This document shows positions 12,555 to 13,112 of a stretch of DNA of 24,033 bases, piece after piece. A program made the translations under genes and the position numbers. The DNA is taken from the IMG/VR virus record IMGVR_UViG_2690316176_000008; one strand, given 5' to 3'. Source of the stretch: a virus. Taxonomy: Duplodnaviria; Heunggongvirae; Uroviricota; Caudoviricetes. Below the pieces are notes generated by a model that did no database searches, was not told the origin of the DNA, and worked only from the letters and a program-made list of their open reading frames with translations. Numbering within the stretch: position 1 is the stretch's first letter; every line of letters begins with the position of its first letter.

Positions 12555-13112
12555 CTAAATACGCACTTTAAGATAAGTCAGCCCCGGATGAAGCCAGTAA
12601 GCCGGCACTTTTTTAAAGGGTGGAGTATTAAAATCACGAAGAAGAGCCTCCCGCACAATTGCATCCTTATCAGCACCACTGGCCAGCGCTTCAATCTCAG
12701 CGGCTACCTGAAGATATCCCATGCAACGGCCAACGCGCTTCATCAGCCCCTGCTTTTTATTGTTCTTCAGGTAATCAATGGCAAATTCAATGAGCTCCTC
12801 ACTGTGCTGGTGCGATGGAGGTGTTACTTTCCCATTTTCTGAGATGGTTATTTTCCCGGCATCACCGGATACAACAAAGGATGGCCGGTTACACTCCCAT
12901 TCCAGCTCACTGAAATTATCATTATGAATACTGAAACACTCTGCGAGATTTTTGCTCATCACTTTCCGACAATAATCGTCAAACGCAGCAAACTGCTCAT
13001 CGCGGCGTTTTTTTTCATCTTCAGAAGGCATCAGCGTCGACAGTTTTTTATTCAGTTCAGCAATTTCATTTTCCAGGCGACTGAAGCGCTGATTCATTTC
13101 TTCATGGTTCAT
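12555..13112 (-). CDS. hypothetical 185 aa soluble protein inserted between holin and endolysin
   Basis: ATG three nucleotides after the holin stop, with GGGGAGAG RBS (translationally coupled). N-terminal heptad-like region (NQRFSRLENEIAELNKKLSTL), no TM segment, no catalytic motif recognised. Confidence 0.6.
   Translation of the reverse strand: MNHEEMNQRFSRLENEIAELNKKLSTLMPSEDEKKRRDEQFAAFDDYCRKVMSKNLAECFSIHNDNFSELEWECNRPSFVVSGDAGKITISENGKVTPPSHQHSEELIEFAIDYLKNNKKQGLMKRVGRCMGYLQVAAEIEALASGADKDAIVREALLRDFNTPPFKKVPAYWLHPGLTYLKVRI

Follow-up and report, generated by a model that had tools for sequence, protein, structure and literature searches.

The window analysed here is the whole 24,033-nucleotide stretch of the IMG/VR virus record IMGVR_UViG_2690316176_000008 (Caudoviricetes). 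Its lysis region reads, along the minus strand, NanS-p esterase, holin S, ORF185, endolysin R, a small ORF and Rz/Rz1 (Table 1). The holin stop codon (TGA, 13116-13118) is followed by three nucleotides (ATA) and then by the ATG of ORF185 at 13110-13112, and the ATG of R, at 12518, lies 36 nt downstream of the ORF185 stop; an earlier, sequence-only reading of this DNA had placed the gene at exactly these distances. The holin begins with a dual-Met start, MYQM (MYQMEK...), at 13331, in agreement with the RefSeq annotation, which gives S 71 residues from that position; the 97-aa ORF called at 13116-13409 was therefore rejected as over-extended. The N-terminus of R, YGLSAAVLALIAAGASA, is Gly/Ala-rich and SAR-like, and E35, D44 and T50 can be read from its sequence, which we take, from R21, to be the E-D-T triad. 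With a PF04971 holin and a PF00959 lysozyme bearing a SAR-like N-terminus and E-D-T residues, the context is that of a pinholin/SAR-endolysin cassette. Two plus-strand ORFs, at 12405-12842 and 12924-13286, were rejected as true genes, since homology, dN/dS and synteny all favour the minus frame. The R-Rz slot, occupied here by a phrog_1115 ORF, is the site of ant in 933W and phage 86.

Table 1. Positions of the features discussed, in the window and in loci carrying phrog_1853.
Feature	Sequence	Position	Strand	Remarks
FI::J ORF	window	3498-6755	minus	1085 aa; Packaging_FI (residues 19-136) fused to tail-tip J domains (257-1085)
Rz/Rz1	window	11503-11030	minus	after R and a small ORF
71-aa ORF	window	11646-11861	minus	phrog_1115; between R and Rz; two shorter ORFs in RefSeq
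Terminator-like hairpin	window	11894-11862		strong; precedes the phrog_1115 ORF
Endolysin R	window	11985-12518	minus	177-aa lysozyme, PF00959, E = 1e-23
Spacer ORF185/R	window	12519-12554	minus	36 nt, AT-rich, without Shine-Dalgarno for R
ORF185	window	12555-13112	minus	ATG start, 185 codons + TAG
Module C1, residues 71-185	window	12558-12902	minus	conserved alpha/beta domain; phrog_26186
Linker, residues 61-70	window	12903-12932	minus	predicted disordered; pLDDT <50 at residues 54-71
Module B, residues 1-60	window	12933-13112	minus	heptad coiled coil or helical hairpin; pLDDT ~70-93
Holin S	window	13116-13331	minus	71 aa, phage 21 S (pinholin) family PF04971, E = 2e-32
Shine-Dalgarno GGGGAGAG	window	13119-13126	minus	in the last holin codons (R-G-E); serves ORF185
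Terminator-like hairpin and T-run	window	13371-13399	minus	just upstream of the S start, inside the over-extended 97-aa ORF
NanS-p/YjhS-type esterase	window	13482-15335	minus	first in the lysis-region gene order
tRNA genes (Met/Ile-CAT, Arg-TCG, Arg-TCT) and STnc100 sRNA match	window	15558-16074	minus	upstream of nanS-p
IS200-type transposase (PF01797)	window	17381-17972	minus	between Q and the late genes
STnc490 RNA (Rfam RF01405)	window	17849-17972		with the IS200 element
ORF6N-domain protein	window	18084-18644		follows the C4/isrK matches
C4 antisense RNA, a1/b1 targets, isrK (RF01695, RF03163, RF01394)	window	18699-18899	minus	just downstream of Q
Q	window	18927-19322	minus	
phrog_1853	L002	3248-3562	plus	
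phrog_1853	L003	3247-3561	plus	
phrog_1853	L004	2378-2713	minus	
phrog_1853	L006	585-902	minus	
phrog_1853	L092	5807-6124	minus	
phrog_1853	L102	436-759	minus	

The ribosome-binding site of ORF185 is indeed strong, as had been noticed from the letters: GGGGAGAG, embedded in the end of the holin gene, pairs with the 3' end of 16S rRNA at -8.5 kcal/mol. This position suits translational coupling to the pinholin, which the sequence-only reading had asserted; the coupling itself is inferred from the geometry only.

ORF185 is almost certainly a real gene of the expressed type. Its frame is intact in each of the 42 full-length copies recovered from other contigs, and the mean pairwise dN/dS of 26 distinct alleles is 0.25. 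The sequence-only reading had staked its proposal on such conservation of the frame in relatives, and also on a lack of homology to any characterised housekeeping phage protein; profile, PDB and fold searches returned no homologue of that kind. The protein is identical to RefSeq WP_001015163.1, a 'hypothetical protein', and a chromosome that encodes it matches the 632-nt queried region with 100% identity. In PHROG 1085 (E = 7.7e-113), residues 1-185 align with positions 117-296 of a 296-position profile; unlike ORF185, this profile includes an N-terminal DUF1327 part, and phrog_36381 and phrog_26186 are its sub-families. ORF185 is thus already catalogued in RefSeq and PHROG, with 'unknown function', and is the subject of no paper that we found: a literature search gave no report on the C1 protein or on the genes of the S-R slot, and functional data for K-12 YdfR only. 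DNA matching the ORF185 region is present in 819 of 5426 complete E. coli genomes (~15%), near full length in 187, and reaches five copies in some EHEC genomes.

The 185-residue product has a GRAVY of -0.62, a pI of 6.2 and an acidic N-terminus. No transmembrane segment was detected, because the highest Kyte-Doolittle mean over 19 residues is only 0.75, and the protein is predicted to be soluble and cytoplasmic. A heptad-like N-terminus without a transmembrane segment or a recognisable catalytic motif had already been described, and all three traits were borne out; the heptad residues are M6, F10, L13, I17, L20, L24 and L27, read from the sequence with 4-3-4-3-4-3 spacing. Three parts can be distinguished. 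Module B matches the profiles phrog_36381, phrog_15975 and phrog_2091, and is common to the DUF1327-containing relatives and to proteins with an alternative C-terminal end, C2. The linker is the site at which an insert of 28-40 residues occurs in aligned relatives. C1 is a conserved C-terminal domain of 115 residues without a Pfam entry, whose invariant columns include H103, G128-R-C-M-G-Y-L-Q135, D160-F-x-x-P-P-F-K167, W173, P176-G and Y180-L-K.

We used AlphaFold2 for the structure prediction that had been proposed earlier. Built on an alignment of 100 sequences in which the Salmonella relatives were included, the model reached a pLDDT of 82 and a pTM of 0.60; with the 26 close E. coli sequences only, the pLDDT was 49. 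The N-terminal part is predicted as two helices (residues 3-27 and 31-59), and C1 as a confident, compact domain of three short strands (79-97) and helices 101-117, 123-144, 151-161 and 178-184, with a pLDDT of ~85-96. No credible match to the C1 fold was found by Foldseek in the PDB (best E 0.47) or in BFVD (best E 0.3), and only chance matches resulted when the family profile was run against PDB sequences (best E 0.12).

In sequence databases, ORF185 matched no Pfam or NCBIfam model, and no Pfam model even at E <= 0.1; neither it nor three longer relatives matched a PADLOC defence model at E <= 0.1. When 100 family members were compared with Pfam at E <= 1, the matches were DUF1327 in the long forms and coiled-coil noise (Relaxase_C, ABC_tran_CTD). 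The long YdfR-family proteins contain the B and C1 modules of ORF185 at 83-88% identity (among those of 287-296 aa, P0006 and P0033 share 86-88% identity with ORF185 over 98% of its length), and they match PF07041 at E ~1e-45 through their first ~100 residues, which are absent from ORF185. ORF185 itself gives no match to the PF07041 (DUF1327/YdfR family) profile. This DUF1327 domain, ~100 residues long, is hereafter module A, and C2 is unrelated to C1. By their modules, the relatives can be arranged as follows: A in H-19B, BP-4795 and Stx2c phages (114 aa) and in K-12 YdfR (103 aa); A+B in PhiR12; A+B+C1 in long proteins of 268-329 aa; A+C1 in orf5 of Stx2 phage 86; B+C1 in ORF185 and in 213-aa forms; and B+C2 and A+B+C2 in Stx2_499 and Stx1_499. 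In these last two phages, C2 replaces C1 behind module B (L099 1731-2216, minus strand; L100 1186-1977, plus strand); it comprises ~100 aa, reads ...RIQKNRERSANSEILDNFLKG...FFLKVER and has no Pfam match.

The distant relatives are 'hypothetical proteins' of Salmonella enterica prophages, which share 30-40% identity with ORF185 in C1 and match PHROG 1085 through that domain. In their N-terminal part these proteins are collinear with DUF1327 and remotely homologous to it; the ancestral arrangement is therefore A+B+C1, and ORF185 is a derived version without DUF1327. Judged by its domain content, ORF185 is a DUF1327-less, domain-deleted (B+C1) form of a modular prophage protein family. An exhaustive profile search of 1.84 billion representative proteins returned only 43 matches, all in-family (the Salmonella proteins are the distant ones) or of low complexity; GTDB species representatives gave three loci, all in Escherichia or Shigella; and tblastn against 50,697 phage records found nothing beyond E. 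coli Stx-type phages. As far as these searches reach, the family appears confined to lambdoid prophages of Escherichia/Shigella and Salmonella.

Moreover, the place of ORF185 is less unusual than was first thought. The sequence-only reading had set it against canonical S-R-Rz cassettes, in which holin and endolysin are adjacent; ORF185 does lie between S and R, but among E. coli lambdoid prophages this S-R slot is a known polymorphic site. It may be empty or hold A, A+B, A+B+C1, A+C1, B+C1, B+C2 or A+B+C2, and what it holds does not follow the S and R alleles. K-12 Qin carries ydfR between essQ and rrrQ, the 114-aa DUF1327 ORFs of H-19B, BP-4795 and Stx2c phages lie in the same slot, and at 85 of the 86 related loci with readable flanks the homologue is bordered by the holin and lysozyme genes and shares their strand. 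YdfR (b1555, PF07041) and the ORFs of H-19B, BP-4795, YYZ-2008 and Stx2 phage 86 thus share with ORF185 a start 3-4 nt past the stop of an S21-type holin and a position upstream of a SAR lysozyme. They differ in content and in their downstream junction: K-12 YdfR consists of DUF1327 only, the very domain that ORF185 lacks, and the ydfR stop overlaps the rrrQ start, whereas the R of the window is set apart by its spacer.

The comparison with 933W indicates what an occupied slot may cost R. In 933W, S and R are adjacent, the slot is empty and the R ATG lies 4 nt past the S stop; R uses GGGGAGAG with the same anti-Shine-Dalgarno pairing energy as the ORF185 start (L101 5040-5055). The S and R of the window are 99% and 93% identical to those of 933W, and the anti-Shine-Dalgarno pairing of its R is +0.4 kcal/mol, with no Shine-Dalgarno in the AT-rich leader; the spacer between ORF and R in Stx2_95 (L001) is identical. 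Since slot ORFs start 3-4 nt past the holin stop and inherit GGGGAGAG, and R is left without a Shine-Dalgarno, the slot gene took over the coupled ribosome-binding site of R. Lower or uncoupled translation of R may be a side effect of the slot gene, as this arrangement of sites would suggest.

The Salmonella relatives (A+B+C1) lie elsewhere: they occupy the interval from Q to S, either directly upstream of the holin gene or one to three genes away from it. The neighbouring holins belong to PF04971 or PF16080, and the holin gene overlaps the lysozyme gene. An obligatory S-R location of the family was therefore rejected; the constant feature is a late operon near the lysis genes, not a place between S and R. 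Salmonella Q is usually followed by a HicAB pair. This toxin-antitoxin pair lies just downstream of Q and before the A+B+C1 homologue in L090, L092, L094 and L103 (four of four contexts). The start of the homologue is overlapped in L103 and L004 by a DUF4406 gene immediately before it.

Because the Salmonella relatives are upstream of the holin and 933W carries an empty slot beside an S that is 99% identical, ORF185 appears to be accessory and is very probably not required for S/R/Rz lysis. This evidence also bears on the suggestion that the protein could be a lysis regulator. Such a protein might be a cytoplasmic modulator of lysis timing, stoichiometric with the pinholin, which would bind the charged, cytoplasmic C-tail of the holin or the membrane-tethered SAR endolysin and delay or sharpen triggering, like T4 RIII or P1 LydB. 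Both of these are small soluble proteins made with a holin, and P1 lydB directly follows lydA. ORF185 resembles them, as cytoplasmic antiholin cofactors, in being a soluble helical protein with a link to a holin, its start is coupled in position to the holin stop, and its family stays close to a holin gene in two genera despite ~30-40% identity. However, no sequence similarity to RIII or LydB is detectable, nor any similarity outside the family among the 50,697 phage records, the PDB and the 1.84 billion representatives. In addition, the relatives sit beside two holin families (PF04971 and PF16080), in some cases with other genes intervening, and slot content does not co-vary with S, R or holin type. 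The S of phage 21 supplies its own antiholin through a dual start, as S21-type holins do, and ORF185 shows neither the membrane topology of an antiholin nor similarity to a known regulator, nor co-variation with one holin. Overall, the evidence leans away from a dedicated regulator, and we consider a lysis-timing modulator unlikely.

A further possibility is raised by phrog_1853, a family of ~105-aa proteins whose genes are convergent with the C1 gene and lie <=52 nt from its 3' end or overlap it. The partner was found in E. coli, in Salmonella and in one divergent metagenomic contig, and in the phage collection of 50,697 records all four of its matches adjoin a C1 gene. C1 and phrog_1853 might form a two-gene accessory module for phage-phage or phage-host conflict (e.g., anti-defence, exclusion or cross-talk between co-resident prophages), of which ORF185 would be the half that is left. 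Tail-to-tail linkage across two genera and a divergent contig, the shuffling of domains, which we regard as typical of conflict proteins, and the several copies of the region per EHEC genome are all consistent with this. Yet the partner is present in only 8 of 99 sampled C1 loci, a sample biased towards close relatives of the window, and is absent from the window itself; no form of the family matched PADLOC, and tight linkage alone could produce the co-occurrence. A conflict module is accordingly even less probable than a lysis-timing modulator.

Expression of ORF185 was considered from the transcription signals of the window. ORF185, like Q, NanS-p, S, R and Rz, is encoded on the minus strand. 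A crude consensus scan of that strand from 11400 to 15800, in which weak promoters may be missed, showed nothing resembling a sigma70 site, and the sole candidate for a terminator belonging to ORF185 itself is a weak hairpin within its 3' end. Given this lack of a sigma70-like site and the hairpin upstream of S, expression should depend on Q-modified transcription. The same scan argues against a classical moron, the other identity that had been suggested: unlike bor and lom, ORF185 has no detected promoter or terminator of its own and lies on the late strand. Its composition is that expected of a moron: its GC content is 45.2%, whereas S, R, Rz and NanS-p have 54-55%. ORF185 is more like the cargo of lambdoid late operons, such as stx and nanS-p between Q and S, ant between R and Rz in 933W, and bor after Rz: it lies in the pR' transcription unit, at the lysis cassette, varies between near-identical phages and has a lower GC content. 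It differs from stx and nanS-p in that these have a known activity.

The state of this particular prophage calls for caution. The FI::J ORF keeps the C-terminal two-thirds of J, and the tail genes between FI and J have apparently been deleted in frame, so that the prophage is judged defective; moreover, an IS200-type transposase gene lies between Q and the late genes. It had been stated that the position of ORF185 guarantees co-expression with the lysis proteins. The late-operon position speaks for co-expression, but in view of the FI::J fusion and the IS200 element a guarantee is too strong, and in this defective prophage ORF185 may never be expressed.

Other features upstream of the lysis genes should be mentioned. 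The layout of the tRNA genes and STnc100 is that found upstream of stx2 in 933W, but without stx genes. The ORF6N-domain gene and the preceding C4/isrK matches resemble P1/P7-type antirepressor control or the Gifsy isrK locus. Rfam gave no RNA family in the ORF185 region.

In three loci of IMG/VR 2609460344 (L050, L051 and L052), the copies share 99% identity with ORF185, but their alignment to it begins at residue 23 and the gap to the holin is 72 nt; this points to a small indel or a frameshift close to the start of the gene in that genome.

With the family, its selection and the prophage in hand, the possibility that ORF185 is a functionless recombination remnant can be weighed; its sole consequence would be that R is cut off from the ribosome-binding site coupled to the holin. 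The extreme mosaicism with its many truncated forms (114-aa A-only ORFs, partial proteins), the N-terminal disruption in the three near-identical loci just described and the defective prophage would agree with this, as would a dN/dS of 0.66 in residues 1-70, a value that is based on very little divergence. In residues 71-185, however, dN/dS is 0.21 with a dS of 0.18; C1 is conserved to ~30% identity between genera with its invariant motifs, is predicted as a compact fold and stands in a frame that is intact in all full-length copies. Because C1 is under purifying selection, we rank debris last, as the least probable of the explanations.

Taken as a whole, the reading that we favour, with a probability of about 0.5, is that ORF185 is a real accessory protein which selection maintains in the Q-dependent late operon and which acts outside the lysis machinery. 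It would be made only late, with the holin and in comparable amounts, through translational coupling; it would stay in the cytoplasm and oligomerise via its N-terminal heptad helices, and C1 would bind a cytoplasmic target in the last minutes before lysis. The family is always found within a few genes of a holin, as a lysis role would predict, and this counts against the favoured reading.

As to the field of action, the likeliest candidate, though a speculative one, is the turnover of host or phage RNA late in infection, since the long relatives fuse B and C1 to DUF1327, whose member YdfR binds RNase E. In two-hybrid and pull-down assays, YdfR binds RNase E 1-597, the catalytic N-terminal half, through its first 72 residues; RNA co-purifies with YdfR, and overexpression of ydfR has a limited effect on the transcriptome (PMC13232886). 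Since RNase E and RNA binding map to DUF1327 residues 1-72, which ORF185 lacks, these activities are not transferable to it, and an RNA- or RNase E-related action of ORF185, suggested by analogy with its relatives, is specifically unlikely. Among the broader readings, we place RNA turnover or another cytoplasmic process first, followed by the lysis-timing modulator, the two-gene conflict module and debris.

A bolder extension, which we regard as quite improbable, is that the S-R slot (Q-S in Salmonella) houses combinatorial late cytoplasmic effectors, each built from a DUF1327 head for RNase E and RNA, a coiled-coil connector and a shuffled C1 or C2 end. C1 would then have a new fold and activity, acting with or against phrog_1853, and ORF185, lacking the head, would be an effector or a dominant-negative regulator. 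If this were true, it could adjust the decay of host RNA, the timing of lysis or the behaviour of co-resident prophages just before the burst, and could thereby affect Stx release in EHEC.

The modular family with its RNase E-binding DUF1327 head, the displacement of R from its coupled site, which concerns the holin:endolysin ratio, and the convergent partner are handles on this gene; if no phenotype emerged from them, ORF185 would be ordinary mosaic cargo. DNA matching it is carried by a sizeable share of complete E. coli genomes, as given above, and Stx and other EHEC prophages free toxin and virions through this same cassette. A gene whose translation keeps pace with that of the holin is thus in a good position to affect the timing or yield of release or the physiology of the host at that moment.
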